From the IMG/VR virus record IMGVR_UViG_3300032281_000616, positions 128,001 through 192,000 of that record: a stretch of DNA of 64,000 nucleotides, one strand, 5' to 3'. Source of the DNA: a virus. Lineage: Duplodnaviria > Caudoviricetes. The first letter of the stretch is position 1; each line of letters begins with the position of its first letter. Below, one piece after another: positions 827-62,944 of the stretch. Below the pieces are notes generated by a model. That model saw only the letters and a list, made by a program, of their open reading frames with translations. It was not told where the DNA came from and did not search any database. A program made the position numbers and the translations under genes.

Positions 827-1393
827 ATGAGTAATGAAATTATCCGAGTCTCAGATCAAGATTTTTCCATAGAGGAATGCTGGATTGATGTCTCTGGATA
901 TGAGGGTCTTTATATGGTTTCTAATCTCGGAAGAATAAAATCCCTCAATTATAAAAAGGGTGGATATTCTAATATCATGTCATCTTCCCCCACTTTAAAA
1001 AAATATCATCGAATTAAACTATCTAAAAATAATACATCATGCACCAAAAGTGTTCATAGAATAGTGTTGGAAAGTTTCGAACCAACCAACGATAATTCTC
1101 TTATAATCAATCACAAAAACGGAATTAAAGACGATAATAGATTATCTAATTTAGAGTGGGTGACATATAAACAAAACATTAGACACGCTGTTGATGTATT
1201 GGGGAGAAGAATTGGTCCTATAAAAGGTGTTCAACAATTGTCAACGAATGGAGAAATTTTGAAAGAATGGGATTCTATAACAGACGCCAGTAAGTCGTTG
1301 GGGATATATCATTCGAGTATTTCGCAATGTTGTAATGGGAGCGTTATTAGAAAAACGTGTGGTGGATTTAAATGGAAATTTTTAAATAATTAA
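827..1393 (+). CDS. NUMOD4-HNH homing endonuclease with C-terminal NUMOD1-like domain
   Basis: EECWIDVSGYEGLYMVSNLGRIKS (NUMOD4); INHKNGIKDDNRLSNLEW (HNH); CCNG...KTCGGFKWK. Confidence 0.9.
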   Translation: MSNEIIRVSDQDFSIEECWIDVSGYEGLYMVSNLGRIKSLNYKKGGYSNIMSSSPTLKKYHRIKLSKNNTSCTKSVHRIVLESFEPTNDNSLIINHKNGIKDDNRLSNLEWVTYKQNIRHAVDVLGRRIGPIKGVQQLSTNGEILKEWDSITDASKSLGIYHSSISQCCNGSVIRKTCGGFKWKFLNN

Positions 1394-1396
1394 AAT

Positions 1397-1597
1397 ATGA
1401 ATATAATTAGATTAAGTGAAAAAAGTGTTAAATTGTGTTGTAATAAACGAAACTGCCCAATTGTGACTGATATTGGTGATGGTAAGGTAGAAATTACAGA
1501 CGATTATGGTAATAAAATAATTGTCAAAAAAGAGGAAGCTCTACTCTTATCAGATGGTGTTAAAACATTAAACGGAGAAAAACTTTTGCTTGGCTGA
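1397..1597 (+). CDS. hypothetical protein
   Basis: 66-aa ORF preceded by TAAATA. Confidence 0.65.
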   Translation: MNIIRLSEKSVKLCCNKRNCPIVTDIGDGKVEITDDYGNKIIVKKEEALLLSDGVKTLNGEKLLLG

Positions 1598-1880
1598 TTT
1601 AATTTTAATTAGTGGGTCCATGATTGGACTGTGTTTGATAATCAAATATAGCACAATCCTAAATTATCCACGCAACATTATAAAGAAAAACAATTTTTTT
1701 AAAGAATTAATCGAATGCGCACAATGTTTAGGATTTTGGATAGGACTCTTTTATGGGCTATTGTTGACAGGTTCAGTTTTATGTTCCTTGGTATTAGCCT
1801 TCTACTCCTCCTGCATATGCTGGTTCGGTGATCATATAATGATGGTAATTTGGAAATATCTATACCCAGATGAAGACTGA
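1590..1880 (+). CDS. small membrane protein with CxxC (DUF1360-like)
   Basis: Hydrophobic segments and ELIECAQCLGFWIG. Confidence 0.5.
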   Translation: MADLILISGSMIGLCLIIKYSTILNYPRNIIKKNNFFKELIECAQCLGFWIGLFYGLLLTGSVLCSLVLAFYSSCICWFGDHIMMVIWKYLYPDED

Positions 1881-2105
1881 ATGTAGATGTGACACCCCTA
1901 AAAATCATATAATATATATCTCCGAATATGGGGAGAATAATATGTTAGAATTGCAACAGATCGAGGTCTGTGATTCTTGTAAGGAGATGTATGATAGTCT
2001 GGGTCTATCACTTACAGATTTTGAGATTAAGAAGTATTTTGGTTGATTGACTTTATAAAAAACTAGGATATATTGTAGTTAAGTCTTTTTGACACATCTC
2101 AAAAA

Positions 2106-2113
2106 TATAAATA
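2106..2113 (+). promoter_or_regulatory. T4-type late promoter TATAAATA
   Basis: Exact TATAAATA 5 nt before ATG 2119; TAAATA also precedes starts at 827, 1397, 4367, 5209, 6939, 22503, 31845, 37697, 40597, 49812, 53257, 55891, 59720, 61854, 63864. Confidence 0.7.
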
Positions 2114-2118
2114 ACTAT

Positions 2119-8373: not shown

Positions 8374-8457
8374 CCGCTGGGTGGCTTCGTCACTCTCCTT
8401 GGCAATGACTAGCAAGTGGAGTAAAAAGGAACGGGTGAACTATCGCCACCCAGCGGC
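8374..8457 (-). ncRNA. candidate 84-nt rod-shaped ncRNA
   Basis: Starts at the predicted TSS; termini CCGCTGGGTGGC/GCCACCCAGCGG are a perfect 12-bp stem. Confidence 0.55.
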
Positions 8458-8492
8458 ATCATCATTCTGCTCTAGTGTTTCATCCTCTGAAG

Positions 8493-8569
8493 CACTTTCG
8501 AAAGCTCTTAGAATCGCTTCCAAGCTCTCGAAAGTGCCGCCCCTTGTCCGGGTTAGGGACAAGGGGCGG
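8493..8569 (-). terminator. two tandem strong hairpins downstream of the 166-aa gene
   Basis: 13-bp CCGCCCCTTGTCC/GGACAAGGGGCGG stem (8537-8569) and long CACTTTCGA/TCGAAAGTG stem (8493-8536). Confidence 0.55.
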
Positions 8570-8584
8570 GAAGGGCTTGGAGGG

Positions 8585-9085
8585 TTATTCCGCTGCGGTT
8601 GCGGGGGCGGTTGCAGTCGCCACCATTGCGGCAATCGCATCTTCAGACAATCCAAGGGCCGCGCCATACTTACGAATTTGAGCAACCAACCCATCGATGG
8701 TCGGCGTCTTGCTAACGGTTTCAGAATAGTCGCGAACCTTAATCGCTTCCCATGCCTCCCCGATCAAATCCTTGGTTTCGAAAACAGGGTTGCCGTCCTC
8801 ATCCAAGGCTTGCACCTCAACAGCTTCCCCATCGACTTCGACCGATTCCATCACTGGCACGGTTTTGAAGCGGCGATCCGTTGCGACCTTGTAAAGCACC
8901 TCAAAGCACTCTTTTTCAGACATAGGGATGGGAGGGGCCTTGGCAACGGCAGCGGGGCGGGTGAAGCCCTTGCGGAGTTCAGTGGCCTCATTTTTGAGGT
9001 TTTCTGTGATTCCGAACGTGAATTGAACGGGCTTCTTAGCAGTTGCGGTTGGGGCGGCGATAGGGGTAGTAGTGGTGGTTTGCAT
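8585..9085 (-). CDS. hypothetical early protein, Ala/Thr-rich, GC-rich codons
   Basis: 166-aa ORF behind the motif at 9104. Confidence 0.8.
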   Translation of the reverse strand: MQTTTTTPIAAPTATAKKPVQFTFGITENLKNEATELRKGFTRPAAVAKAPPIPMSEKECFEVLYKVATDRRFKTVPVMESVEVDGEAVEVQALDEDGNPVFETKDLIGEAWEAIKVRDYSETVSKTPTIDGLVAQIRKYGAALGLSEDAIAAMVATATAPATAAE

Positions 9086-9437
9086 AACGTCTATATTCTA
9101 TCTTAGTGTTTTATTCGACTTGCTTCTTTCGAGAGCTTCCCGCATCCTTTCTGGTAGGATGAACCATTTCGTGCTTTCATTCTGTCCTAGTGTTTAATGC
9201 TCTTTGCTTTCGAGGTAGGCATCCAATAGGGCATCGTTCTTTTCGGTGGAGTCGGTGGGAATCATGATGATCATGCCCCTTCATTCTGCTCTAGTGTTTC
9301 AACGACCCACTCACCCGCTTTTTTCATTCCCTTATGTATAGGATGGGAATCGGGGGCGTTTTCTAAATATACGGCGAAACAAATCAGGAGAATTATGGCG
9401 GAAAGATATTTCATCCCCTCTATTCTATCCTAGTGTT

Positions 9438-12999: not shown

Positions 13000-13302
13000 T
13001 CAGAGGATTTTCTTGAGAGCACTGAGGAATCTCTTTCCTGAATTACCAGATTTATTCATAATAAATAAACCAGAATTTAGGGCTGCGATTGCACCAATTC
13101 CGCCACAATCAGTTCCCCAGATACTTCCACCCTTCAAAGGAACCATTGAAAGCAAGTGATAGTATTCCCCATCACACTCCACTAACTTATCCATATCGTT
13201 TGGAGTAAATGACTTATGAATAGATATCACCCTATCATTCTTGATATTGATATTCCATCCATACTTTTCACATTCTGATTTGAAGTCTTGTGGGGTGATC
13301 AT
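13000..13302 (-). CDS. hypothetical protein
   Basis: Promoter motif at exact spacing. Confidence 0.75.
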   Translation of the reverse strand: MITPQDFKSECEKYGWNINIKNDRVISIHKSFTPNDMDKLVECDGEYYHLLSMVPLKGGSIWGTDCGGIGAIAALNSGLFIMNKSGNSGKRFLSALKKIL

Positions 13303-13350
13303 GTTTATATCTTAGGCTAGTGTTTCATGAATACTTAACTCTATTTTTCA

Positions 13351-13509
13351 TTATTCTTGAGAGAATTTATCAATCATCCTACGATACTTTTTCTTTTCCC
13401 TACGCATCGTGCGCTTTTTGGTAGCATTACTACCAACATCGAAACAATCATCGTAATCTTTTTTCCCAGAGTGAATATGAGAACGACTATAATAATTTCG
13501 AACTTGCAT
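13351..13509 (-). CDS. small basic protein (52 aa), not in ORF track
   Basis: MQVRNYYSRSHIHSGKK...RREKKKYRRMIDKFSQE; ATG 6 nt after TAGAAT. Confidence 0.6.
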   Translation of the reverse strand: MQVRNYYSRSHIHSGKKDYDDCFDVGSNATKKRTMRREKKKYRRMIDKFSQE

Positions 13510-13585
13510 GTCAGTATTCTACTTTAGTGTTTCATCTATCCCAACTCAGGGTAGTTTAATGAGATACCCTAGCTCATTGTTTTGA

Positions 13586-15115
13586 TTATTCTTCCCGATT
13601 GCGGCGTGATGGAGCATCTGTAAGATGAATAAGACTTTCCATCGCACGAGTCGCTGCAACATAACGAAGATGTTTTTCTTGCTGTTGCATCCATGGAAGA
13701 ACTGCGTATTTGGATGGAGAAAATTGCGCATCACCCAACCAGTAAACAGTTTTCCATTCAAGACCCTTAGCCTTATGAATAGAACTGAAGGTCACGATAT
13801 TCGGAAGATTCCCATCCTTAGAATCAGTGAACATATCAGCGATAAGTTTCTCCAGAGAATAAAGATCATCCTTTCCGAGAGATTGGACACGTTCAATCAG
13901 AATGATCATGGTATCCAACTTATCTTCCAATTGTTGCATCTTAGCATAAGAAGCTTTCTCGAACTCCTTATTGAAGAATTCATTAAGTTTGATGATGAAG
14001 TCGGAGAGAGTCTTAACCTTTTTCCACTTATTCACCAGTTTGATAAGATCCTTACCAATATCTTTTCCTTCGATACGGCAACCGATACCTTGACGAATAA
14101 GAGCGAAAGCAAGGGCAACATTAGGAGCATTGTTTCGGCAAAGAATCCCAACATTACGATCAAGCTTGATATTCATAGCTTGATCGACAAACTCTTGATA
14201 CTTCATAGAAGTGACAGAACCCTCACAGTTTCCTTCATAGGCCATGATATCAGGAAAGAACTCTTGAGCAGTCTTAATGATATTCTTTCCACAGCGGTAG
14301 CAGATGGAAAGTGGAAGCTCTTCACATTCAAAACGCTCACGAATGAGATTCATTGAATCATTCTCAGCACCAGTGAATCCCATAATTGCTTGTCCTTCAT
14401 CACCAATAAAGATACAACGACCATCTGGTTTGACAAGTTTAGCAGCAAGAAGTTTACGACAAACATTTGTATCTTGAGCTTCATCAACGACAACCCAATC
14501 ATATTGTTGACCCTTGATATCATAGATCAGGGGAAGATACTGCATATCATCAAAATCAATTGAACGAAAATCAAGATTGGAGTCCCTAAGAACTTGCTTG
14601 GCAATTTCAATAACTTCACCAAGATCAGCATCAAAGTCTGTATCGATATCATGATGAGTGATGATTTCCATCCATGCTTGAGTATCATCGATAGAAGTTT
14701 GACCCTTAACACCAAACGCATTTTGTTTAGCGAAACCTACAAGTTTAGTAATAAAGTTGCGAGTATATTGAAGATCTTGACGTTGGCAATACTTTTCAGT
14801 GATCCAATAAACTTTACCATTCTTTGGAACATTATGCCAACCTTTAGCTTTATAGAGCATACCCTTACCCGTTGCATGAAATGTTCCAGAAATAGCATTA
14901 GGAACGCCCATACGAGAAAGTTTCTCTTTAAGTTGCCATGCAGCTTTAGCACCAAAAGCCAACATGATAACATCACCTTTCATGAATTGTGCGCAATGCG
15001 TCACAAGAAAAGTTTTACCGGAACCAGCACGGGCTGGAATGATAAGGTTTCTCTTATTAGGGTTAGGATTACGAACCCAAGATTCGACATCAAGTTGTTG
15101 TTGAGATAGTTGCAT
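13586..15115 (-). CDS. UvrD/Rep-like superfamily 1 DNA helicase
   Basis: ARAGSGKT, VVDEAQD, IGDEGQAIMGFTGA, CYRC, SIHKAKGLEW, YVAATRA. Confidence 0.92.
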   Translation of the reverse strand: MQLSQQQLDVESWVRNPNPNKRNLIIPARAGSGKTFLVTHCAQFMKGDVIMLAFGAKAAWQLKEKLSRMGVPNAISGTFHATGKGMLYKAKGWHNVPKNGKVYWITEKYCQRQDLQYTRNFITKLVGFAKQNAFGVKGQTSIDDTQAWMEIITHHDIDTDFDADLGEVIEIAKQVLRDSNLDFRSIDFDDMQYLPLIYDIKGQQYDWVVVDEAQDTNVCRKLLAAKLVKPDGRCIFIGDEGQAIMGFTGAENDSMNLIRERFECEELPLSICYRCGKNIIKTAQEFFPDIMAYEGNCEGSVTSMKYQEFVDQAMNIKLDRNVGILCRNNAPNVALAFALIRQGIGCRIEGKDIGKDLIKLVNKWKKVKTLSDFIIKLNEFFNKEFEKASYAKMQQLEDKLDTMIILIERVQSLGKDDLYSLEKLIADMFTDSKDGNLPNIVTFSSIHKAKGLEWKTVYWLGDAQFSPSKYAVLPWMQQQEKHLRYVAATRAMESLIHLTDAPSRRNREE

Positions 15116-21235: not shown

Positions 21236-21310
21236 TGAGAGAGACAGGATTCGAACCTGCATCGATCCATTACGGTACTACGGAGTAGAATTCCGTTCCG
21301 ATACACTCCC
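21236..21310 (-). tRNA. degenerate tRNA-like gene with truncated D-arm
   Basis: GGGAGTG/CTCTCTC acceptor, ACGGA/TCCGT stem, long variable region, GCAGG-TTCGAAT-CCTGT T-arm. Confidence 0.4.
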
Positions 21311-22459: not shown

Positions 22460-23193
22460 CCGCACCCGGACTCGAAAATACACTTTTAGACTAAATAGTA
22501 TTATGAAGATGCTTAATTGTGATAGGTGTAATGAAGAATTCGAAGTTTCATATGACCAATGGAAGAATCGGAGGAGTAAAAAGAAAATCCATAATAGGAA
22601 TAATTATTGTTCGCTGGAATGCAGATTATTGGGACAAGGAAAAAGCCCAAGAATAGAAGTTTCGTGTGAAAGTTGTGGTTGTTTTTTTATGAAACATTAT
22701 AGCGAGGTTACGAGAACCCCTAAAAATTTTTGTTCTAGATCTTGCTCTGCTACATATAACAACACTCACAAAACAAAGGGTAATCGCAGAAGTAAGTTAG
22801 AAAAATGGTTAGAAGAACAATTAACTGTGTTATATCTAGAACTAGAAATTCTATATTCGAACAAAACCACCATTAATTCTGAGCTTGATATTTATATACC
22901 ATCCCTAAAATTAGCCTTTGAACTTAATGGAATATTCCATTATGAACCAATATATGGTGAAGATAAGCTAAATCAAATCCAAAACAATGATAATAGAAAA
23001 TTTCAGGCTTGTTTAGAGAAAGGTATCGAATTATGTATTATCGATACTTCTCAACACAAATACGTTAAGCCTTCTACTTCACAAAAATATCTTGATATTA
23101 TCACACATTTAGTTAACTCTAAATTAGAGTCATCCAAAACAGACTACGTGGAAGTAGTGTGATTTCCTGTTTCTGACCGCACCCGGACTCGAA
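22460..23193. mobile_element. endonuclease cassette flanked by 17-bp direct repeats of the tRNA 3' end
   Basis: CCGCACCCGGACTCGAA at 22460-22476 and 23177-23193. Confidence 0.75.
22503..23162 (+). CDS. Zn-finger plus PD-(D/E)xK (Vsr/DUF559-like) homing endonuclease
   Basis: CDRC..YCSLEC, CESC..FCSRSC; SKLE..ELDIYIPSLKLAFELNGIFHY. Confidence 0.8.
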   Translation: MKMLNCDRCNEEFEVSYDQWKNRRSKKKIHNRNNYCSLECRLLGQGKSPRIEVSCESCGCFFMKHYSEVTRTPKNFCSRSCSATYNNTHKTKGNRRSKLEKWLEEQLTVLYLELEILYSNKTTINSELDIYIPSLKLAFELNGIFHYEPIYGEDKLNQIQNNDNRKFQACLEKGIELCIIDTSQHKYVKPSTSQKYLDIITHLVNSKLESSKTDYVEVV

Positions 23194-23292
23194 CCGGGAA
23201 GCCTTTCGGCGGCAGATTTTCGACAAGGTATAATATATTTCACTTATACCCTATTAGAAAGTCTGCGATGTTTACCTTTTCATCATACGGCC
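23174..23292 (-). tRNA. tRNA-Leu (probably UAA) interrupted by a 38-nt insert in the anticodon loop
   Basis: GGCCGTA/TGCGGTC acceptor, A73, long variable arm, CCCGG-TTCGAGT-CCGGG; GCAGA/TCTGC stem encloses 45 nt instead of 7. Confidence 0.75.
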
Positions 23293-31891: not shown

Positions 31892-31920
31892 ATTATCAAA
31901 AATTATTATCAGAAAACGTT

Positions 31921-32000: not shown

Positions 32001-32176
32001 ATTCATTCCTTAGTATTTGCTGTATGTTTTCTTATCAAGTTACATTTTTTGCTACGTGTCCTAGCCAATTAGACGATACCATCTTTCATAGAAAGCGATG
32101 GCAGTGTTAACGGGAGTTGCTTTAAGTTTTGTTTCGAACATGTTGTTAGTTTAACTTAGTGTTTTACGAAGTCAAG

Positions 32177-35771: not shown

Positions 35772-37637
35772 TTATTTTGTTGTAAGGATTTTACGCAGAT
35801 CTTCTCGTGTAATTTTTGTGTTGTATGTTTCAATACTAGACAAAACCCTACCTCGGAAAGAATTTTCCTTCAAAATCTTATTCTTGACCATATTCAATCT
35901 AGTCAACTTTGATGGATTTTTTCCAATGACCTTGATCAGTCTTTGAGATGGATGGATTCTAAACATCGCACTTTTAACACGATATTCGGCATTCTCCATA
36001 TCTCTTTTGGCTTGCTCAATGACATTGAGCTCAGCGCAGCGTTTTGTATATTCTGGTGAGTTAAGCTCAAACCAACCCAGTTCGAGAAGTTGTTCTTTCA
36101 TCTTCTTAGAATTACAAACCCAATAAGGATTATTAACACCACACTCAGAAGTCAATCCAATAACGCGCTGTCTAAGGTATGAGATACTATCAATAGATTT
36201 TTCCCATCCATCTACGATTTCAACACCGTTGAAAGACTTATCAGTTACATGTTCATCCAATTCTTCAGCAGTGAAATTTCTCTTGTGACCATTGAAATAC
36301 ACAACATACCTAACCTCATTAGGATCTTTGGCTAGTTTGGGTAAACCAAGTTTCTTAACGTCTACAAATGTTACATCAGAAACATCCAAGGTATCGGTTG
36401 ATAAAATATCACCTTTATTAAGCATCCAAACAATTTGTGTATTTGGAAACAACCCAGCAATATATTGATCAAGACGCTTCACCCAACCTTTGTATGACTT
36501 GATATCTGGAATCTGATACACCACATACTTACCTGTCGTTTTATTATGACCATACCCAGTGTGAATATAATCTAGACATTTTTGAATTTTATAAGTATCT
36601 GGAAAAGTATTAGAGAATGAGTATCTGAACCACTCACCTTCATAGTATGAATTATGCTTATTTTCTAAAATCGCTTCCCCAAATTTTGGTGTAACAATCT
36701 TGGATCGATCTTCATCACTAAGTTGAACTATGGCATCAGTGATTTCATCCAGAACCTTTTTATTGTTTGGAGTATCTTCAATACTTTCACGAGAAATTGG
36801 CACAGTCAATTTACCGATAGGAACATCCACTACAATCTTACCCAGAGGGTTCACAACCTTGATATCGGATCGCATATTGTAAACAATCCCACCCATACGA
36901 ATGGCTACATAATCAGGAGATGTCCAAAATGTGCTTTGGTATAAGTTGATGGTATAGTCCCCGATATCCTTAGTTAGGAGAGGTTGAATAGGAGTATGTT
37001 CAACATCATATTGATCTGTAAATTTAATATTTGCATTCGGTAGAAAGCGTTCCACGAAAGATGCTGATTCTGTAGAGAAATTGTAGTAGTTTTTGTTTAC
37101 ATCTAGTGATACCTCCAAACCCGATTCTGTTGTCGGTTCTGGATCTGATACACGATAGATTTCTCCTACAGATAAACCATTGTCACCAGCACCGAGAATA
37201 CAAGCGTATTGAGTTTTTAATCCTTCATGATATGAGGTGATGTAGAATGAATCCGAGACAGCAAATGGTGACAATGCACCTACACCAAATCCACCGACTT
37301 GGTTATTATTGTTTCTCTTATCAGATCCACCATACATACCATAAATGGTTCTGATAGACTCCTCACTAAGTCCCTTAGCGAAGTCCCTAGAACTCCACAC
37401 ATATTGACCATTGACATTCTCAAGCTTAACCTCTACAGCTTTGTCGATACCATACTTGATATGTTCATCCTGAGAGTTTGTGATAGTCTCACGGATACAT
37501 GCGAGGGTTTTATTGGAGTAAATCTTATCGCGTAAAAATCCAGCGATCATATCTTCAGCACCCGAAGCTACTCCCATTTTTGAAACGTTCATGTCTTCCG
37601 ATGCTATGGTGGGTGAATTCTTAAAGTTTAATTTCAT
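35772..37637 (-). CDS. rIIA: rIIA lysis inhibition protein (GHKL ATPase N-terminus)
   Basis: IYSNK..ACIRE.ITNS.D.H, RDFAKGLS, YGGSDKR..N.QVGGFGVG..SPFA..DSF; adjacent to rIIB. Confidence 0.9.
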   Translation of the reverse strand: MKLNFKNSPTIASEDMNVSKMGVASGAEDMIAGFLRDKIYSNKTLACIRETITNSQDEHIKYGIDKAVEVKLENVNGQYVWSSRDFAKGLSEESIRTIYGMYGGSDKRNNNNQVGGFGVGALSPFAVSDSFYITSYHEGLKTQYACILGAGDNGLSVGEIYRVSDPEPTTESGLEVSLDVNKNYYNFSTESASFVERFLPNANIKFTDQYDVEHTPIQPLLTKDIGDYTINLYQSTFWTSPDYVAIRMGGIVYNMRSDIKVVNPLGKIVVDVPIGKLTVPISRESIEDTPNNKKVLDEITDAIVQLSDEDRSKIVTPKFGEAILENKHNSYYEGEWFRYSFSNTFPDTYKIQKCLDYIHTGYGHNKTTGKYVVYQIPDIKSYKGWVKRLDQYIAGLFPNTQIVWMLNKGDILSTDTLDVSDVTFVDVKKLGLPKLAKDPNEVRYVVYFNGHKRNFTAEELDEHVTDKSFNGVEIVDGWEKSIDSISYLRQRVIGLTSECGVNNPYWVCNSKKMKEQLLELGWFELNSPEYTKRCAELNVIEQAKRDMENAEYRVKSAMFRIHPSQRLIKVIGKNPSKLTRLNMVKNKILKENSFRGRVLSSIETYNTKITREDLRKILTTK

Positions 37638-37696
37638 ATCAGCAGTGTAGTTTAGTGTTTAATCAAAAAAATTCTTCTTAAGAGATAAATAATAAT

Positions 37697-38677
37697 ATGA
37701 CAAAAGAATGTAGTAAATGTAAAATAGTTAAGGATGTTTCTGAATTCGGTATTTGTAAACTAGTAAAGAGTGGGTTATATCCATCATGTAATCCATGTAG
37801 GAGAAAGTTAGCTAAAGAAGCTACAATATTAAAAAAATTAAAAAAGGAGGAGGAACTCAAACATAATCCACCAGCACCAAAGATAGGTAAAAACTGTTCC
37901 AAATGTAAAGAATTCAAATTATACAGTTTTTTTGTAGTTAATAATTCAGCAAAAGATGGAAAATCTTCTAGATGTAAAGCCTGTAAAAAAAATGAAAGAA
38001 TCGATAATAGAGAATATATAAATAAACAGAATAAAGAATACTACAAAAGGGTTAAACACACAGATCGTTACAGGGAAGCTTATGATGTATATTATAAAAA
38101 AAATTCAACAGCCATCAAAAAAAGAGTGAAGGATCATTATCAAAGAAATAAAGAAACGATGTCTAAAAAGGCGAACGTTAGGAAAAGTAGAAGATATCAT
38201 TCAGATAATAACTTCAATCTTTTGTGTAAAATACGAGCAATGATTATAAGAACAATCAAAGGCAGAAAATGCAAATCTGTTTACTATGTCGGGGTGAATA
38301 CACCAGAAGAGTTTTTAAATATCATGAATTCTAAGTGTAACAATCCGAATTGGATTTCTGATAAGTATCAGATAGATCATATATGGCAAGTTCATTGGTT
38401 CACAGACGCTCTAGAAAAAGACCCAGAGAATGTTTCTAAGATAATACACAACCACAAAAATCTAAGACCGATACCAGCATCAGAAAACATCAATAGGGAC
38501 AAATACGATTATACTAGTTTGTGTATCGAAGATTTTGAAATATATAAACCATACATAAATAAAAACATCCTAATCCAGATATCCGATCACTTCTCCATAT
38601 CACCTGCCCCAGCAGCTACTCCCATCTTAGATACAGACATATCTTCAGATGCAATAGTTGGTGAATTTTTGAATTGA
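37697..38677 (+). CDS. Zn-ribbon repeat HNH homing endonuclease
   Basis: Two CSKC...C..C repeats; YQIDHI...NHKNLRPIPASEN. Confidence 0.8.
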   Translation: MTKECSKCKIVKDVSEFGICKLVKSGLYPSCNPCRRKLAKEATILKKLKKEEELKHNPPAPKIGKNCSKCKEFKLYSFFVVNNSAKDGKSSRCKACKKNERIDNREYINKQNKEYYKRVKHTDRYREAYDVYYKKNSTAIKKRVKDHYQRNKETMSKKANVRKSRRYHSDNNFNLLCKIRAMIIRTIKGRKCKSVYYVGVNTPEEFLNIMNSKCNNPNWISDKYQIDHIWQVHWFTDALEKDPENVSKIIHNHKNLRPIPASENINRDKYDYTSLCIEDFEIYKPYINKNILIQISDHFSISPAPAATPILDTDISSDAIVGEFLN

Positions 38678-38685
38678 AGTTTCAT
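38587..38685 (-). pseudogene. stranded original rIIA 5' end with its own promoter
   Basis: MKLQFKNSPTIASEDMSVSKMGVAAGAGDMEK* versus rIIA MKLNFKNSPTIASEDMNVSKMGVASGAEDMI. Confidence 0.9.
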
Positions 38686-38712
38686 ATTGTGATGTAATTA
38701 TATCTTAGTGTT

Positions 38713-40166
38713 TTAACTATAAAATTTAACGCCCATGTAACCATTTTTCACCATGAAAGATCTAATGATATCCATAGCTTTTCCATAATCCTTTCCCCAC
38801 ATAGGAGGAAAGCATATATTATCAATTTCATCTACCAAATCCTCATGGTAAAAATCATCACTTGTTCCATTAAAATTGATGGCATTAGTCTTGAAGAAAA
38901 TTCGATGACATTCGCTCCATGAAAGACGCCATTCTTTAACAGCGTAATCGAATAGTGTTGTATATTTGAGTCTTTTCATTGTTCGAAATCATCCCAATTA
39001 ATAGAGTCCAGATCAATATCCTCTTCAGGAGGATAAATTGGTTCGTATGAAGTCACTGTAGTAACCTTGGTTACTTTCTTCACTGGTCTTGGTGTATAGG
39101 AATCTTTTTGATAACCCTTACCTTTGTGACAATCTTCTAATAGTCGATTATTTAACCAATTTACAGCATAGTAATCGTTTCCTACTTTATGATATGATGT
39201 GTGCCATTCATTGCCAGAACCATCGTATTCTATGTCAGAGTGATCAATCTCTGGGTGATCTTTCAACCACATATTTAATTCTATTTTATTCATTATATTA
39301 AATCTTTATGTTCTTGAAATAATTTCTCTAGTTCGCTTCTCAGGGGATCATCGATATTCATCTCTTCAGAATGTATATCATAGTATATTGTATAAGTCCA
39401 ATGGTTTTCATCGTATCTATGGACTTCCATATCATCTATCGTAAGGTGATAGATTACTTCTTTTCTAATATTTTTAAGATTCATGACTCAGTATAACATT
39501 TCCGAATAAAGTGTATACCCATCTCCGCTTCCATGATCGGGAAATCTCATTTGTCCATTTTTTTCTGCAATAATATAAGCTTCTTCACGAGAAACCCATT
39601 CTCTTAGTTGAGTTATAAAACCCTGATCAAAATCTCGAAATCTTTCTGATTCCAATCTCTGAGAACGCATTACATCATCCCAATGTCTAGGTCCACATAT
39701 AATTCTACCAGTTTTCTTGTTTTTATTTGCAGCACAAACAATCCAAGGATCGGGTTTAATTAGACCATTTTCAGTCCAGTAATCACTCATTTCCTAAAAA
39801 AAAGATAAAATCGATTCCTTAAAAACATACCATACACCATAAACAGCGTATTTAATTTTTCTTACTACTTTCATATGAAAGTAATATACGCTAGTGTTTA
39901 ATAACTAAGTCTCACAGATTGGCATCCGTTACTAGAGGTGGATTAACAATTGGATAAAATGGTATCCAAATGGGCATCTCTATAGCTTTATCTAAAGGGT
40001 TAGAGTCTCTATTTGTATCTTCGTATGGGGAACATTCTTCGAGTGAATGTTTCTTCGATACGACTTCTTTAGCTGAGTCTATAATATCTTTAGACGAGTA
40101 TATGTCTTCTTTCAAATTAGAAGAAGATAAAAACATTAGTAACCTAAAGATAATTAAACTCTTCAT
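38713..40166 (-). CDS. block of small hypothetical genes (38713..38979, 38976..39293, 39293..39484, 39488..39790, 39912..40166)
   Basis: Abutting ORFs; 39488..39790 has the common phage pattern G.RH.D..QGF...SREEA..IA...GQ. Confidence 0.7.
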
Positions 40167-48788: not shown

Positions 48789-48836
48789 TTATCGCAATTC
48801 TATGGTTTTTGGCCAATCTGGAAATACTGATCCGTT
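48789..48836 (-). pseudogene. stranded original 3' end of the 2H phosphoesterase gene
   Basis: NGSVFPDWPKTIELR* versus functional NSAYPSWPKTIEIR. Confidence 0.8.
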
Positions 48837-49812
48837 ATTCTTTTTTCCAAAGGAAACCTTTGTAATGTTTTTTTGTTCCAGCAAAAACCGCTGATATTGG
48901 AGAAAAATTGAACATATTAAAATATTTTTTAATTTCTGTTGAAGTTTCCCAAACCTTTATCAAGTTCCCTGACATATCATATTGACCAATGTTGCGAAGT
49001 ATCAACTTATCTGGATTGCTCATTTTTTGTCTACTTTCACATATTCTAGTTTTTATATAATCAACTATCTCTCTTTTGGTTTTCTTTTCATATGAAAAGA
49101 AATATCCTTTATATGAAATATTCTTACCCATAGCAACATGAGATATACTACAAATACTTTTAAGATTTAGTGCATCAGCACAACTCCTAGCATCTTTCCA
49201 TATTCCCACAAAACACCCATCCAACATGTATGCGTATACATTTTTCCGCCTATAATCTCCATTTTTTGGAATTATATTGTAGTCTTTTAAAATTTTTAAA
49301 ACTACACTATGACTCAATCCCAATTCCCTCGAAACACCCAAAGCATTTTTGGTTTCTTTATAAAGCTTAAGAACATCGATTTCGTAAGGTTCCCTTTTCT
49401 TTCTTTTTGTTATATTTGTCTTTTCTATGATAGACTTGGAGACTTTATAACCGACATTACTTTCTGCGGTGGGTCTAGAATTGTAACCATTATTACAACT
49501 ATCGTATTTGGTAATATAAAACGTCTCCATCTCTATTATATTCCCACCATCGCAAGAATCTATGATTTCGAATGTAAGATTTTCTCCGCCATACTTATTA
49601 TAAGCATATTGTAATTTTTTCGAATAATGTATTCCCAATTTAAGTAAATCAGCGTGTTTACCCCATCTAGTTCTAATTCCGTAATAACTACCTTTCCGAA
49701 TACTCGCAGAACTTCCTATATAAACTTTATTAGATGTTGAATTAATAAATGTTAATTTATATACGCCTGTAGTAACTGGCCAACTTTTCCTATCTTGTAA
49801 TGTGTATACCAC
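48835..49812 (-). CDS. GIY-YIG homing endonuclease with NUMOD1-like repeats
   Basis: GVYKL..KVYIGSS; repeated VYAY.LDG.FVG.W / GQYD.SG.LIKVW. Confidence 0.88.
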   Translation of the reverse strand: MVYTLQDRKSWPVTTGVYKLTFINSTSNKVYIGSSASIRKGSYYGIRTRWGKHADLLKLGIHYSKKLQYAYNKYGGENLTFEIIDSCDGGNIIEMETFYITKYDSCNNGYNSRPTAESNVGYKVSKSIIEKTNITKRKKREPYEIDVLKLYKETKNALGVSRELGLSHSVVLKILKDYNIIPKNGDYRRKNVYAYMLDGCFVGIWKDARSCADALNLKSICSISHVAMGKNISYKGYFFSYEKKTKREIVDYIKTRICESRQKMSNPDKLILRNIGQYDMSGNLIKVWETSTEIKKYFNMFNFSPISAVFAGTKKHYKGFLWKKE

Positions 49813-49816
49813 AATA

Positions 49817-50278
49817 CTATTTAGTCATTGTGGTAGCATTTTTTTCTCTAATTTCGATAGTTTTTGGCCAACTGGGATAAGCTGAATTAAATTTTCCATT
49901 CGCTATAGTCAAATGAATTCCTTTAAATCTTTCACCATCTACAACTTCAACCTTCTTCTTGATCTTATCTAGTTCTTGCGAATACACTCTAAGGTAATAC
50001 ATTAAGAATCCCTTGGTATAACCACCTTCAACAATGTTCTCATCATAATCAAACTCGATAGTTTTACCACGATAATACATAGCTTTCTCCCAGTTGATTT
50101 TCTTGTTAAATTTTTGAGAATATAAAGTGATATGAGCCCCGTGCATTGGTCTGTTCATTCTGATCCAATACTTACGCTGAATAAACCAATAATAAAGCTC
50201 AACAAGATCTTGAGAAACATCAAGAACCATACGACCTTTGTGTGGTTGAACATTTATAACTCCAGACGCCTTTAACAT
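49817..50278 (-). CDS. 2H phosphoesterase
   Basis: Two HxT motifs: GAHITL and IHLTI. Confidence 0.7.
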   Translation of the reverse strand: MLKASGVINVQPHKGRMVLDVSQDLVELYYWFIQRKYWIRMNRPMHGAHITLYSQKFNKKINWEKAMYYRGKTIEFDYDENIVEGGYTKGFLMYYLRVYSQELDKIKKKVEVVDGERFKGIHLTIANGKFNSAYPSWPKTIEIREKNATTMTK

Positions 50279-53256: not shown

Positions 53257-53394
53257 ATGAAAATAGAAAAAAGCAAAATCGAAGTTTTTTTAACCACCGA
53301 AATAAAAAATAAATTAAGAGATCGTGCGAATAAACATGGAACAACTATGTCCGAAATAATCAAAAGAATGTTGGAAGAATATTTAAACAAATGA
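53257..53394 (+). CDS. 45-aa ribbon-helix-helix DNA-binding protein, not in ORF track
   Basis: KIEVFLTTEIKNKLRDRANKHGTTMSEIIKRMLEEYL; TAAATA upstream; ATGA overlap with the endonuclease. Confidence 0.75.
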   Translation: MKIEKSKIEVFLTTEIKNKLRDRANKHGTTMSEIIKRMLEEYLNK

Positions 53395-54179
53395 AATTAA
53401 CCAATAAATTTGAAAATATACCGGGTGTTTATGTTATAACAAATTTAATCAATGGTAAAGTTTATGTCGGAGAAAGTTTAAAAATACATAAACGTATTTC
53501 GGAACATAAATCTAGAAAAGACAGACTTATAAGTAAAGCGTTTAAAAAATATGGTATTGAAAATTTCACAATTTATATAGAATATATGCCAAATTTTTCT
53601 AAAAATGATTTGTGGGATTTGGAAGAACAGTTAATTTTAAAATTTGATTCATTGTCTCCAAAAGGATATAATATATGTTCGCGTGGCGATGGTCCTGTTG
53701 GCTTGAAACATTCACCAGAATCCAAGCTCAAAATGAGTGAATCACAAAAACTAATAGCAAAATACGGTTCCGAAAATCCACTCAGCAAGCCTGTGTATGT
53801 TTATGGAATAAATGGAAAATTTATCAAACATTTTATAGGTTATACTCAAGCAGGGAGAGAATTGGGGTTATCTCATTCGACTATTATAGGTGTTTTAGAT
53901 GGAACACATTTGCAAAGCAAAGGATACATATTCAAAAAAGAATATATGGGGAAAGAAATTACACCAATTTCAAATAACGAAATCGAAAGCAAATCAACAA
54001 AAAGAAAAGTTGCTCGCTGTGATATAGAAGGTAATATACTAGAAAAATTCGATTCTGTTTGGGATGCAGCAGTATCCACTAATACAAGTAGACAAGCCAT
54101 CACAGGAGCGTTGAGGGGATTAACCAAAAAATCAAAATTTCGACTATGTAAAGGATTCAGATGGAAGTATTTAAATTAA
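53391..54179 (+). CDS. GIY-YIG homing endonuclease with NUMOD3/NUMOD1 repeats
   Basis: PGVYVITNLINGKVYVGES; KHSPESKLKMSES; KPVYVY..NGKFI. Confidence 0.9.
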   Translation: MKLTNKFENIPGVYVITNLINGKVYVGESLKIHKRISEHKSRKDRLISKAFKKYGIENFTIYIEYMPNFSKNDLWDLEEQLILKFDSLSPKGYNICSRGDGPVGLKHSPESKLKMSESQKLIAKYGSENPLSKPVYVYGINGKFIKHFIGYTQAGRELGLSHSTIIGVLDGTHLQSKGYIFKKEYMGKEITPISNNEIESKSTKRKVARCDIEGNILEKFDSVWDAAVSTNTSRQAITGALRGLTKKSKFRLCKGFRWKYLN

Positions 54180-55674: not shown

Positions 55675-55857
55675 TTATTTGTTTTTTATTTGATCATCAA
55701 GACCAGAATCTTTGGCTAATTGTCTAATATCTTGAATTTCCTTTACCGTTGGTAACGTGCTTTGAGCTTTTTCTCCACCCTCAATATCATAAACCACGAA
55801 CTCGATATTTGGATGCAATTCTTCCATGGTTTGTAAAATGGATTCTACAATGGTTCC
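55675..55857 (-). pseudogene. stranded original 3' end of the macro-domain gene
   Basis: TIVESILQTMEELHPNIEFVVYDI versus functional DIISAILLSTEKRHPNIEFIAYNL. Confidence 0.8.
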
Positions 55858-55890
55858 TCAATATCCATCAGCTAGACTAAATAATATTAC

Positions 55891-56724
55891 ATGAGTAAAA
55901 TATTTTATGTATATGGGTTAATAGATCCTAGAAACAACCTACCATTTTATATAGGTAAGGGTACAATTAACCCAAAACGTCGAGGAGTCAGATATAGGAG
56001 AATATTAGAGCATTTAAGTAAGTCGGATACGGTTAATAAATTTAAAGTTAAAGTAATGGAAAAAATTTTACTAAATTACGACAAAATTCCATATATTATA
56101 TATAAATATTTTGACGATGAAGTGGAATGTTTTACGTGTGAAGTAGAATTAATATCTAAATACGGTAGAAGAGACTTAAAAAGCGGATGTTTAACAAATT
56201 TGACAAATGGAGGTGAAGGTTTTAGTGGTAGAATAAAAACCACTGAGGAGAAATTTAAAATTTCTCAAGCTAAAAAATTGTATTATGAATCAAACCCAGC
56301 TAATTTCAAAGGATGTAAACACACAGAAGAAACGAAAAGATTGATGTCAGAAAAACAACAACAAATGGCGAAACACCTTTCTATGAAAGCCACTGGGAGG
56401 AAACACACAGAAGAGACTAAACAAAAACTCAGAGAAATTAATTTGGGTAGAAAAATCCCCAAAGAAATATGTCACAAATTCGCTCATCATGGATCAAATA
56501 ATTGTCAGGCTAAGACTTACATCTTCGTCTCACCAAATAAAGAATGTTTTATAGTCAATGGAGAATTTAAAAAATTTTTAATCGATAAAGGGTTATCGAT
56601 ACAAACATTTAAAAAATTTGTAAATAAAGGAATTATTCCACCACCAACCAATCCAAACCACAATAAAATGACACAAGCTAGGTTAGATTCTACTGGGTGG
56701 GAAGTGAAATATCATTTAGAATAA
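55891..56724 (+). CDS. LEM-3-like GIY-YIG homing endonuclease with NUMOD3 repeats
   Basis: FYVYGLIDPRNNLPFYIGKG; LTNLTNGGEG; KHTEETK repeats. Confidence 0.88.
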   Translation: MSKIFYVYGLIDPRNNLPFYIGKGTINPKRRGVRYRRILEHLSKSDTVNKFKVKVMEKILLNYDKIPYIIYKYFDDEVECFTCEVELISKYGRRDLKSGCLTNLTNGGEGFSGRIKTTEEKFKISQAKKLYYESNPANFKGCKHTEETKRLMSEKQQQMAKHLSMKATGRKHTEETKQKLREINLGRKIPKEICHKFAHHGSNNCQAKTYIFVSPNKECFIVNGEFKKFLIDKGLSIQTFKKFVNKGIIPPPTNPNHNKMTQARLDSTGWEVKYHLE

Positions 56725-57209
56725 TCCTCTTCTACTAAGTTATACGCTATAAATTCAATATTTGGGTGTCTTTTTTCTGTGCTCAATAAAATCGCTGAAA
56801 TTATATCCCAATCACCACCAGCCCTGACAGCACCCATACCCCAAGGAACACCGACTCTAACAGGACTCTCCCACAAAGAACAGTTGTATTCAATCTCTTC
56901 ACAAATTTTATCGAGAGCATCAGCTAGGGCATCGTAACTACAATTTCTACCTAGGTGAGATCCATCATTTCCCAATCCTCGCATAGCATAAATGTTATAG
57001 ATACCACGACCATCTCCAATATCACCATAAGAATAATTTCCAAGCTTATCAACTTCATTCAGGTCACAGTCTAAATCAGCCTGATAAACTTTTGGGAATT
57101 TTCGTCTAATGAAATAAGCGATTCCACTACCAAATGTTGTATAACAATTTGCGATGTGACAAGCAAAATCCCAATCACCCTCTAACATATCACCATATAT
57201 AACTTTCAT
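56712..57209 (-). CDS. macro domain (ADP-ribose processing) protein
   Basis: GDML, HIANC...FGSGIA..IRRKFP, PWGMGAVRAGGDW. Confidence 0.85.
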   Translation of the reverse strand: MKVIYGDMLEGDWDFACHIANCYTTFGSGIAYFIRRKFPKVYQADLDCDLNEVDKLGNYSYGDIGDGRGIYNIYAMRGLGNDGSHLGRNCSYDALADALDKICEEIEYNCSLWESPVRVGVPWGMGAVRAGGDWDIISAILLSTEKRHPNIEFIAYNLVEEDYSK

Positions 57210-59680: not shown

Positions 59681-59719
59681 AATTTGGTGTATTTGGTGTA
59701 GGATTTACTAAATAATAAC

Positions 59720-60676
59720 ATGGATGAAGTTAGAATAATTGAAATGTATACGCAGGGGAAGGGTTCTCCGACTATAGCTAAAGAATTCGGAACCAATTTT
59801 TATGAGATTTTAAAAGTTTTGAAGCGAAATAAAATCGAGCTAAGAAGTGCGAGAAAAAGTTCTAAAAGGACCATATTCGATGAAAAATTTTTTGAAAGAA
59901 TAGACACCGAAGAAAAGGCTTACTTTCTAGGTTTTATTTTAGCAGATGGGTGTATAAGTGTCAAGCGTAATTATCTGAAAATTGGAATCTCCAGCAAAGA
60001 TATAATAATTTTAAAAGAATTTAATAGGATAATGAAATCGGATGTAAAAATTCACACATACCCACATAAAGGAAGCTTCAGTGGTGAACGATACGAATTA
60101 TCGTCTCTCACCTTTATATCCCCAAAAATAGTATCTGATTTAAACAATCTCGGAATCGGTGAAAGGAAGACATTTACAGTGATTCCTCCTATAATAGATG
60201 AATCATTGGAACATCATTTTTGGAGAGGAGTAATGGATGGGGATGGTCATATTAGTTTATATAATACTAAAAACTTAAAACACGTCCCCAATATTGAATT
60301 CGGTATATGCGGAAACATGTCAACTATGTCATCCCTATCTACATTTTTAACAAAATATGGTATAGATCATAAGATTACACCAGATAAATCAATTTTTAGA
60401 ATTAGACTAACTAATAGGCGAGCATTAAAAATTTTGGATATCTTATATAAGAATTCTACGATTTTTCTTGATAGAAAAAAGGCGAATTATATGATGTATA
60501 AAAATGCTAGACAAGAAGCGGACAAATCTAGTCCTAAAAATCTAGGAATAAAAAAGACAAAATCTGGTAATTATACATCTTCATCATTAATAAGTATACA
60601 TGGCATACAAAAACGCATCGGAACCTTTAAAACCTTTGAAGAAGCTTTAGAAGCGCAAAATAACTTTAGTGTTTAA
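59720..60676 (+). CDS. double-motif LAGLIDADG homing endonuclease
   Basis: YFLGFILADGCI and FWRGVMDGDGHI; C-terminal RIGTFKTFEEA (AP2-like). Confidence 0.88.
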   Translation: MDEVRIIEMYTQGKGSPTIAKEFGTNFYEILKVLKRNKIELRSARKSSKRTIFDEKFFERIDTEEKAYFLGFILADGCISVKRNYLKIGISSKDIIILKEFNRIMKSDVKIHTYPHKGSFSGERYELSSLTFISPKIVSDLNNLGIGERKTFTVIPPIIDESLEHHFWRGVMDGDGHISLYNTKNLKHVPNIEFGICGNMSTMSSLSTFLTKYGIDHKITPDKSIFRIRLTNRRALKILDILYKNSTIFLDRKKANYMMYKNARQEADKSSPKNLGIKKTKSGNYTSSSLISIHGIQKRIGTFKTFEEALEAQNNFSV

Positions 60677-61106
60677 TATATTGCCTTGCCGATTCAAAAA
60701 TAGACTTGATTATAGGGCGGGCAGCACTATTCGCACTATGAACATAATAAGTTGGTAGAGGGTGCTGTAGCCTCTTACAGCGATCACACAACCAATCAGC
60801 GCAATGCGCTCCAGTCTTATACTTAGAACCTCTCCAATTCATCATAGAATACAATTCTACTAGATCTCCTTGAGGTATATCTGTATCACAACAATTAACC
60901 AAATCATTATCAAATGAGACGACATGGGGAATTCCGAACTTTTCAACATACTCCACAAATTCTTCATAAGATCTAACAACATCCCACTTTGAATTGGATA
61001 TACCAGAGTATTGCTGCAAAGTCTTATCCTCTTCAAATATATAACAATGTTCAGGTTCTCGAATGTCATCGAGTAAAATCGCTCTAAATTCTTTTTTCAT
61101 ACACAT
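60666..61106 (-). CDS. cyclic-phosphate processing receiver-domain protein
   Basis: LLDDIREP, VRSYEEF, VSFDNDL, KTG..CA.WL, VHSAN. Confidence 0.75.
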   Translation of the reverse strand: MCMKKEFRAILLDDIREPEHCYIFEEDKTLQQYSGISNSKWDVVRSYEEFVEYVEKFGIPHVVSFDNDLVNCCDTDIPQGDLVELYSMMNWRGSKYKTGAHCADWLCDRCKRLQHPLPTYYVHSANSAARPIIKSIFESARQYIKH

Positions 61107-61854
61107 ATTCTAATTCTTTCCATTTAATTTTGCTGTAAATTTGATTTTTCGTCAATCCCAATTCATCTCCCGCATTTTTAATAGTTTTCCATCTTTTGTT
61201 TGTTTTTGGACAAAAGATGTATCTTATCTCTAATGGGGTATTATGACATTTTTCTAGTGGTGTAAAATTTTCAATATCAAAACTCCAATAATATCCGTGA
61301 GTTGACTTACCACGCCTTCTACAAGTATTACTTATTAATTGAGTGGGTATATTTGTCGCTTCGGATGCTTGTTTGATGGAATCAAACTCATTTAATACTT
61401 TTAGTGTTTTTTTATCTATTTGATAAACTTTTTTATACATAGATTTAAGTATTTTATCCATTGCTGGAACAGATCGTCTCTTCCCGAGATGAGAATCTGA
61501 CATTTTCTTTCTACTCTCATCTGAGACTTTTTTCTTCCAATTGCTTCCAGCTACTCTTAATACATTATATCCAAAATCCCTATCATAAGATTTATAATAA
61601 TCCATCCATTTTTGTTCATGTGTCAATAATTCGTCTAAATTTTCAATTTCTTCAATCGGTAAAAATTCAAAGACCCCCATCCCCCATTTATAAAATGATG
61701 ATTGTAGATATTTACTATCGTGCGTTCCTTTTCGAAGTTTATTCCGATGTTGTTTCCATCGTTTACGCATATTGACAGCACTTCCTATATAATGCTTACC
61801 AGTTTCTTTATTTGTTATCCTATAAATTCCAGATATATTATTATTTATTTTCAT
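61084..61854 (-). CDS. GIY-YIG homing endonuclease (Seg/I-TevI-like) with NUMOD repeats
   Basis: SGIYRITNKETGKHYIGSA; RWKQH; GYN. Confidence 0.9.
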   Translation of the reverse strand: MKINNNISGIYRITNKETGKHYIGSAVNMRKRWKQHRNKLRKGTHDSKYLQSSFYKWGMGVFEFLPIEEIENLDELLTHEQKWMDYYKSYDRDFGYNVLRVAGSNWKKKVSDESRKKMSDSHLGKRRSVPAMDKILKSMYKKVYQIDKKTLKVLNEFDSIKQASEATNIPTQLISNTCRRRGKSTHGYYWSFDIENFTPLEKCHNTPLEIRYIFCPKTNKRWKTIKNAGDELGLTKNQIYSKIKWKELEYVYEKRI

Positions 61855-62944
61855 CTACACTAGTATTTAGTGTAGAATCGAAAATTTTATCGTCTAGTAG
61901 AAGAAACCTCTTTGGCTTATATTGATCCTCTGTAATATTTTCTTCCATAGTTTTTTTCTTCAAATTATCCCATAAAGGACTGGACCAGTATGCATTTAGA
62001 TCACTTACTCTATTTTTATCACCTTTACTCATCTGTTTTCAGTAAATCTTGTTGTTTTATATCTAATAACTCTTGCTCTAATTCATTCTTTACCATTCTT
62101 TCACCCTCTTCTTTATTAAGAACAAAATTAGTAATCACACCAAATTCCGAATGACTCAAAGAATAAACTATTTCATCTGATTCTAATCTAGGAGTCAAAA
62201 TATATCGAAATTTACTATCCTCATCACCCCAATAACTTTCCTTCGAATATATTGTGTTCCCAAATGAATCATAATCCTCAACTGACCAAAATTCGGGTTT
62301 CAGTGATCTAATATCAATATCTAAAACTGGACCATTCTCGGATTCTGTGATAGATACAATACCCATGCTAACCAAATCTTTCATTATTAATGATAATCCT
62401 TTATCTAGACTCCACTCTAATTTAGAATCATCTGATATCTTGTTCATGGAATATAAAACAAAAATAGCACCAATCTCATCTAATGTGAGTTTGGTTTCAG
62501 CTAGTTCTATTGGAAGTGTAAGATCATTCATGAATGATATCCTCCACTTTCTTATCGTATCTCAATAGATATTTCTGAAAAGTTTCGTCATCATCTCCAG
62601 AATTGAAAATGTAATCGAATAACCAATTTTCATTTTCTTCAGAAATACCCAATTCATCCAAAAGACTAAAGTATCTCAAGTCTTGAGTCTCTGTAAGAGC
62701 CTTGACAAAATCTTTTACTTTTTCTACTTCATTTAACATTTTATTCATATTTTTATCCTATATTTTGCATCCACCAAAAGGAAATTTCCTTTTCAAAATC
62801 TTTTTTATTTTTGACCGATCCCGGTCTAACAAAGATATACGTCTCTGCTTGTTCTAAATTAGAATCTGACCAAACTTCAATTACATCATCTTCTTGCATG
62901 ATGAAACTATAGTTTCCCACATTACCCTCATATTTCTCACTCAT
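61841..62944 (-). CDS. four small hypothetical genes (61841..62032, 62025..62531, 62524..62748, 62753..62944)
   Basis: Abutting ORFs. Confidence 0.7.

Follow-up and report, generated by a model that had tools for sequence, protein, structure and literature searches.

In the phage genome of IMG/VR record IMGVR_UViG_3300032281_000616, a stretch of 64,000 nucleotides (bases 128001 to 192000 of 202,205 bp; hereafter the window) carries nine free-standing homing endonuclease genes (HEGs), seven of which lie between two diverged copies of a gene or tRNA end. Typically, one copy is in frame with the body of the target gene, and the other is stranded beyond the nuclease gene. Comparison with related phages points to the stranded copy as the native end and to the in-frame copy as the foreign one. 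The HEGs probably entered together with the adjacent gene end of a donor through one-sided break repair, with the end of the recipient left behind as a scar. We read the arrangement as the phage form of something already known from organelles, here packed into a single genome at an unusual density.

The original prediction for this window, made from its letters, described intron-less cassettes that insert inside essential genes and restore them with a recoded replacement end. Its count of nine HEGs was confirmed by Pfam, PHROG families, and motifs read by eye. Its duplicated termini were also found, and the HEGs do lie within, or at an end of, genes that are intact in relatives. The mechanism that it proposed holds in outline, but design, essentiality, and novelty were overstated.

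Duplicated ends flank seven of nine nuclease genes

For each HEG, we aligned the two flanks with each other as protein on the same strand and compared the best score with those of 341 random gene-sized intervals of the window (median, 31; maximum, 53). Scores exceeded every random interval at rIIA (105), at the 3' end of a macro-like gene (67), and at the 3' end of a 2H-like gene (61). When repeated across the genome, the test returned the same three loci and added an eighth case beyond the window, where a C-terminus occurs twice around a GIY-YIG gene (G000:80184-80888; flank score of 86). The layout there (G000:C1:79747-80940) consists of a 146-aa gene, the GIY-YIG gene, and the stranded last ~18 codons abutting the next gene.

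Within the genome, the duplication is significant at four loci of the window: rIIA 5', 2H-like 3', macro-like 3', and tRNA-Leu 3'. The duplicates at thyX, the receiver gene, and the gene at 1397 are too short for a within-genome test (scores of 33 to 38, P > 0.1). Relatives that lack the HEG make the thyX and receiver cases appear convincing. An endonuclease open reading frame (ORF) between an in-frame and a stranded terminal copy is therefore found at four loci on evidence internal to the genome and at two more through relatives, and the case at 827/1397 is suggestive only. No flanking duplicate was found around the other two HEGs, at 53391 (flank score of 30) and 59720.

The record carries direct terminal repeats, and the G+C content of the window is 34.5%. 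With the first 20 kb as the query, megablast found no match among 50,697 deposited phage genomes. In tblastn searches, rIIA of the window is ~30% identical to the closest annotated rIIA genes, so public isolates could not be used as empty alleles. A scan of IMG/VR with the single rIIA protein returned nothing, and a homologue alignment was required instead; in all, 270 metagenomic rIIA homologues were gathered, with identities of up to 58 to 67%. Three near-complete relatives were taken whole, G001 (196.7 kb), G002 (206.6 kb), and G003 (211.7 kb), and the partial record G005 and the ENA contig L003 were added for comparison. All seven loci with duplications are free of the HEG in at least one relative, which is the sporadic presence expected of HEGs of the T4 seg/mob type.

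The rIIA locus

The gene rIIA (35772-37673, minus strand; 621 aa), identified by tblastn and its 270 homologues, begins with an in-frame copy of its first 30 codons behind its own AAACACTA promoter box. Divergent from it lies an HNH-type HEG (37697-38677, plus strand) with matches to PHROG endonuclease families. Alignment of the duplicates places a stranded rIIA promoter with codons 1 to 30 at 38596-38727 on the minus strand. The two copies share 84% amino acid identity over 31 aa and 74% nucleotide identity. The relic tracks the family consensus to codon 30 (G-D-M), after which it reads E-K-stop.

The gene is free of the HEG in L003 and L005. Over codons 1 to 30, the relic is 86% identical in nucleotides to the allele of L003, compared with 74% for the in-frame copy, and the leader of the relic aligns with L005. 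The DNA from the start of the HEG to the in-frame rIIA promoter instead aligns with L006, which is HEG positive. The in-frame end at rIIA thus travels with the HEG, as had been proposed: the DNA upstream of it is like that of a HEG-positive phage, while the leader of the relic is like that of HEG-free phages. At the break point, the in-frame copy of the window and L097 share the motif E-D-M-I-x-G-F, where HEG-free alleles have G-D-M-L-x-x-Y.

Homologues of this HEG, with 45 to 72% identity, adjoin rIIA in L006, L097-L099, and L100. L101 is a probable further case, in which the neighbor is represented by a 65-aa stub only. Those at L006 2741-3505, L097 1263-2171, and L100 3001-3777, and probably that at L101 257-985, lie divergent upstream of rIIA. 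In L006, the rIIA gene is 48% identical and the HEG 58% identical to those of the window, in the same divergent position and with no relic. Relics beside the rIIA-linked HEG were sought at six other loci, and none was found. The distribution of this HNH-type family points to a long-standing pairing of the nuclease with rIIA as its target across lineages in which the rIIA protein has diverged strongly from that of the window. The homologues stop ~25 aa short of the HEG of the window, whose last ~27 codons are the antisense of the relic; the HEG has thus lost its own stop codon at the junction.

Two other genes were noted in L003. An IS605 OrfB/TnpB-like gene lies between rIIA and rIIB (13186-14352), and a GIY-YIG gene (8395-9129) overlaps the end of a gene of the T4_Y16D family.

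The AAACACTA promoter box occurs at 61 minus-strand sites in the window (e.g., 37653, 38706, and 60667). It often coincides with the final K-H-stop codons of the preceding gene, and gene ends therefore overlap the next promoter. Contigs of other samples diverge exactly at one such box (38715), which suggests that these boxes act as recombination joints.

The 2H-like and macro-like loci

At the next two loci, it is the C-terminus of the target that occurs twice. The 2H-like gene (49817-50278, minus strand; 153 aa), recognized by eye from two H-x-T motifs, is 70% identical to its counterpart in G001. Its in-frame C-terminus matches the end of the G001 gene at 16 of 18 residues, and G001 is HEG free at this locus. 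The adjoining HEG (48835-49812, minus strand) has a weak Pfam GIY-YIG match and is paralogous to three other GIY-YIG genes. The stranded 3' end (48792-48857, minus strand) is of the allele type found in G002 and G003, and downstream of it come the two small genes that also follow this end in G003, which is HEG free here. Both allele types are therefore found without the HEG, in different relatives. The last three codons and the stop of the HEG lie in relic sequence, and the junction falls at a shared GGAAAA run.

The macro-like gene (56712-57209, minus strand; 165 aa) belongs to PHROG 335 and has weak NCBIfam macro/DarG matches. Convergent with it is a GIY-YIG HEG with a NUMOD3 module (55891-56724, plus strand; Pfam NUMOD3, PHROG 314), in which the GIY-YIG motif was recognized by eye. 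The stranded 3' end (55675-55870, minus strand) includes orf50 (55675-55827). It retains a lineage-typical tail that is common to G001 and G003, whereas the in-frame copy lacks this tail. Orthologues of the macro-like gene are HEG free at the locus in four relatives, and both the 2H-like and the macro-like genes are uninterrupted in G001 to G003 and in G005.

The thyX, receiver, and 1397 loci

At these three loci, the duplicated end is the N-terminus. The gene thyX (30486-31163, minus strand; Pfam Thy1) has a diverged in-frame N-terminus. Upstream of it is a GIY-YIG HEG (31150-31845, minus strand; Pfam GIY-YIG), whose final four codons overlap the start codon of thyX. Beyond the HEG, comparison with G002 reveals a stranded thyX start of nine codons and a stop (31862-31891, minus strand). 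The relic, M-D-N-K-V-E-L-I-G-stop, agrees with the start of G002 thyX at 9/9 residues, a peptide that occurs once per genome. The thyX gene of G002 is 74% identical to that of the window and has no HEG upstream.

Between a Thg1-like gene and the thyX cassette, a local search gave a match to the Y-RNA-like YrlA model with a tRNA-like module (31893-32023, minus strand; 34.6 bits against a gathering threshold of 69; E of ~6e-6). We had considered this tRNA-like module upstream of the thyX relic as part of the duplication, and we rejected it because it matches the YrlA model. RNA-repair genes abound nearby, including those for RNA ligase, Thg1, a CCA-adding enzyme, RlaP, and cREC and the 2H-like and macro-like genes.

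The receiver gene is one open frame of 185 to 204 residues (stop to stop) in G001, G002, and G003. In the window, it is split by a GIY-YIG HEG (61084-61854, minus strand; Pfam GIY-YIG and NUMOD1). The cREC receiver domain gene (60666-61106, minus strand; Pfam cREC_REC) now starts from a different Met, located within the 3' end of the HEG, and it aligns with residues ~62 to 204 of the G001 orthologue. On the other side, orf63 (61841-62032, minus strand), assigned by alignment to G001-G003, is the native 5' part of the gene and comprises the N-terminal extension and the first strand. It aligns with the N-terminal 50 to 70 residues of the G001-G003 genes with scores of 101 to 115 and ends exactly at the L-L-L-D-D strand. 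About 10 receiver residues at the break occur in both pieces. Contrary to the earlier claim, the receiver is thus not rebuilt but is a split and restarted ORF without its ~45-aa N-terminal extension.

The gene at 1397-1597 (plus strand; 66 aa), identified through its G001 orthologue, carries an in-frame N-terminal copy. It is full length and 78% identical to that orthologue over 65 aa. The G001 gene directly follows YopX, with no HEG. The HNH HEG before the window gene (827-1393, plus strand; Pfam HNH_3, NUMOD4, and NUMOD1) appears to be fused in frame to the start of the relic. The original prediction had taken the second copy to be the N-terminus of the nuclease itself. The first ~12 residues of the HEG do resemble the N-terminus of the G001 orthologue (I-x-R-V-S-D/E), a resemblance that is suggestive only.

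The tRNA-Leu locus

The remaining duplication involves a tRNA. A 17-nt exact repeat (at 22460 and at 23177-23193) brackets the HEG at 22503-23162 (plus strand). The repeat belongs to a stranded tRNA-Leu 3' end that spans from the T-loop to the acceptor end (22460-22480, minus strand) and, as read from the sequence, to the in-place 3' end of the tRNA-Leu body (23174-23292, minus strand). Repeats of this kind (at least 15 nt, 200 to 1500 nt apart) number 14 in the 202-kb genome, and several of them are promoter boxes. The two tRNA copies differ by two bases only, so that the recoding claimed for the other ends is absent here. In G002, the locus holds a normal 85-nt tRNA-Leu(UAA) with neither HEG nor insert.

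The tRNA-Leu of the window has an insert of ~38 nt in the anticodon loop and is not called by ARAGORN. A weak tRNA match at 21236-21310 (minus strand; 33 bits), also uncalled by ARAGORN, is followed by ~150 nt that are possibly structured. Outside the window, two exact direct repeats of 21 and 17 nt lie ~590 nt apart at G000:C1:108972-109610, near a 523-aa nuclease-like ORF (106280-107851).

Nuclease classes

Pfam HNH_3, GIY-YIG, LAGLIDADG_3, and NUMOD1/3/4 models cover seven of the nine HEGs. The other two, at 37697 and 22503, were assigned by PHROG families and motifs seen by eye. In the HEG at 37697, we read an HNH motif of the form D-H...N-H-K-N...N; Pfam and NCBIfam supply no name for this HEG or for the 2H-like gene. 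The HEG at 22503 encodes a zinc-finger protein that matches PHROG 559, 3339, and 9084 (homing/HNH endonuclease) and that, judged by eye only, ends in a PD-(D/E)xK-like motif. It has no sequence match in Pfam or NCBIfam, and the PDB search gave spurious repeat-protein matches only, so the class of this HEG is unconfirmed. The earlier assignment of three classes to the seven HEGs is plausible: HNH and GIY-YIG stand, and PD-(D/E)xK is unconfirmed.

The two HEGs without a flanking duplication served as controls. They are a GIY-YIG gene (53391-54179, plus strand; Pfam) and a LAGLIDADG gene (59720-60676, plus strand; Pfam LAGLIDADG_3). The latter has a counterpart at the same place in G001 and none in G003.

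Origin of the two copies

Relatives without the HEG tell the two copies apart. As the original prediction had foreseen, it is the stranded copy that their thyX, receiver, and macro-like alleles match, as does the 2H-like allele of the G002/G003 type, and rIIA leans the same way. The relics also remain linked to native neighboring genes. The stranded copy is therefore native and the in-frame copy foreign, clearly so for thyX, the receiver, and the macro-like gene; at rIIA, the DNA supports this assignment. Synonymous and nonsynonymous differences (pS and pN, Nei-Gojobori) describe the age of the copies. The values are 0.82 and 0.105 for the rIIA pair and 0.93 and 0.30 for the macro-like pair. 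With pS high and pN lower, each copy must have long served as a working allele prior to their juxtaposition, and recent duplication in place is excluded for such old alleles. The same values bear on the idea of a recoded replacement end, which we did not uphold: with pS of 0.82 to 0.93, and with an in-frame 2H end that matches a HEG-free genome, the replacement looks like an ordinary allele of other phages. Nor is the label of essential genes supported, given that rIIA, the macro-like gene, the 2H-like gene, and cREC are accessory-type genes.

The sequences show the anatomy of the loci, their HEG-free alleles, the allelic origin of the two copies, and the conserved link of one HEG family to rIIA; the cleavage positions, the repair pathway, and immunity we infer. 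In the donor, the HEG would sit just outside the target gene, before its start codon or after its stop codon, as it does in L006, L097, and L100. The nuclease would cut a HEG-free allele within the gene, at a depth of between a few and a few dozen codons. On the side of the gene body, the broken end would then find homology in the donor and copy the donor gene end, followed by the HEG. With no likeness beyond the HEG, the second junction would form without homology or at microhomology, and the distal HEG edge would there be joined to the other broken end of the recipient. The resulting order would be gene body, in-frame donor end, HEG, stranded recipient end, and native neighbor, with the inner boundary of the relic marking the break. 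The target gene would be kept whole without splicing, and the site would probably be protected, since it is interrupted and a diverged allele has also taken its place. From then on, the composite could home normally into related phages, with relic and gene body as homology arms. In the same-strand N-terminal cases (thyX, the receiver, and 1397), the HEG would come to lie behind the native start signals of the target and may be expressed from them.

The relic-side junctions are ragged. As described above, the rIIA HEG has lost its stop, the 2H HEG ends in the relic, and the HNH HEG at 827 may be fused to its relic. Such edges fit junctions made without homology.

Several observations weigh against this account. 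The relatives are only 45 to 74% identical, so the distinction between native and foreign rests on short segments. At rIIA, the amino acid margin is small (28/30 residues for the relic and 24/30 for the in-frame copy), and the 827/1397 case consists of ~5 identical residues. A donor-like state is known for the rIIA HEG family only, and the nearest HEG-positive allele (70 to 78% identity) is not the actual donor. At tRNA-Leu, where the copies differ by two bases, allele divergence cannot explain protection. Finally, the 18 HEG-like genes of three relatives include one borderline flank duplication, at a GIY-YIG-like gene (G003:C1:124638-125363) with a C-terminal motif on both flanks (score of 50, empirical P of ~0.02), although short relics would slip through the flank test in these relatives. 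The layout is common in this genome and not general.

Alternative explanations

Among the alternatives, the one that survives best is that the elements are pre-formed cassettes with precise edges, whose end was deliberately recoded and selected for resistance to their own nuclease. We regard it as unlikely. It predicts the same geometry as entry with a donor end, and it would account for the great density of synonymous differences and for the E-D-M-I-x-G-F motif shared at the break by HEG-linked rIIA alleles (the in-frame copy and L097). However, saturation at synonymous sites matches what normally separates these phages, and the in-frame 2H end, 16/18 to HEG-free G001, is a natural allele. 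The relic-side edges cut into the HEG ORFs, which speaks against precise ends. Furthermore, the HEG of L006 adjoins an rIIA allele with the sensitive-looking motif, and the tRNA copies are almost identical.

Duplication of gene ends in place, with HEGs landing between the copies later and the unused copy decaying, is very improbable. In its favor, phages often undergo tandem duplication, and no more than ~1 kb separates the copies. Yet a decaying copy should gain replacement changes freely, and pN is far below pS. The two copies also resemble different relatives, and the relics end exactly at the edge of the HEG in eight separate loci.

It is scarcely credible that the duplicates reflect chance similarity or the misassembly of two co-occurring strains. 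Three relics are very short and the genome is metagenomic, but the empirical nulls are exceeded at four loci of the window, and the thyX relic is 9/9 identical to the gene start of a relative. A second assembler (Logan; probably the same sample) placed the rIIA locus in one 66-kb contig at ~41x coverage with 0 differences, and short contigs from another study span the HEG-rIIA junction and the relic at 97 to 99% identity. Public runs mapped on the rIIA locus yielded no HEG-free variant of the same phage.

Hardly tenable, too, is the proposal that the HEGs reside in unrecognized self-splicing introns or inteins, with the stranded copies as exon remnants: tRNA-Leu carries its odd insert, but an Rfam scan of the window at E of up to 0.1 found no intron family, no ribozyme core or in-frame intein blocks surround the HEGs, three HEGs run antisense to their host genes while the rest occupy other frames and bring starts and stops of their own, and no host gene needs splicing, since each possesses a whole in-frame end. 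On this point, the original prediction of elements without intron or intein was correct.

Implications

Entry with a donor gene end offers a route for selfish nuclease genes to move between non-collinear phages without killing the gene that they cut. It also means that phage gene ends can differ in ancestry from gene bodies. The genome provides eight natural before-and-after pairs, from which the target sites of HNH, GIY-YIG, and one further nuclease type may be guessed. For annotation, short ORFs or extra promoters beside HEGs may be stranded gene ends.

A broader claim would be that phage HEGs routinely colonize genomes sharing only the target gene, by one-sided repair that leaves a relic and a foreign gene end. 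We put this forward tentatively, at somewhat less than even chances. If true, the inner edge of each relic would record a cut site, and scans of phage metagenomes for relics would yield nuclease-target pairs with approximate cut positions in bulk. Such colonization would also account for part of the mosaicism at phage gene ends and for part of the additional promoters.

Comparison with known systems

The closest phage systems are the intronless homing genes of T4 (SegF, SegG, SegB, and MobE; PMC2988022). The HEGs of the window share with them the nuclease families, the NUMOD modules, and a sporadic presence between conserved genes. By analogy, cutting inside the neighbor gene and co-conversion of flanking markers would be expected here as well. 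One-sided repair has an experimental precedent in T4, where one-sided homing with microhomology junctions was demonstrated (Parker, Belisle and Belfort 1999, as summarized in PMC2988022). In contrast to our loci, the T4 review describes clean intergenic insertions and split genes and never mentions flanking duplications (PMC2988022). Working genes that are split by HEGs include Aeh1 nrdA/mobE, T4 gene 39/60 mobA, and phage 25 gene 43 (PMC2988022). The cREC gene, split by a GIY-YIG gene, resembles these but differs in that ~10 break residues occur in both of its pieces. Our literature search found no phage report of terminal duplications flanking HEGs; most subscription journals were outside its scope, and this absence is not proof.

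The architecture is not new in kind but is the layout of the mobile endonuclease ORFs (mORFs) of fungal mitochondria. There, an endonuclease ORF together with a foreign C-terminus takes the place of a native gene end, and this native end persists downstream (PMC3630166). Cases have been described in Glomus for atp6, atp9, cox2, and nad3 (PMC3630166) and for atp6 of Allomyces macrogynus (Paquin et al. 1994, as cited in PMC3630166), and C-terminal duplications of cob and atp6 are known from Endoconidiophora (PMC6279837). The native copies of mORF targets are nearest to relatives, and the differences between copies are mostly synonymous (PMC3630166). Our loci are alike in the order of gene body, foreign in-frame terminus, endonuclease ORF, and stranded native terminus. 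They are also alike in the affinity of the native copy to relatives, in the largely synonymous differences between copies, in having no need of splicing, and in the involvement of GIY-YIG and LAGLIDADG enzymes. They differ in their host, which is a phage rather than an organelle, and in their enzymes, which are predicted from sequence here, whereas the fungal layout includes a proven endonuclease (PMC3630166). To the fungal cases, the window adds N-terminal duplications, one of which includes a promoter, and the 3' end of a tRNA, along with antisense HEGs, one apparent fusion of relic and nuclease, and one split target.

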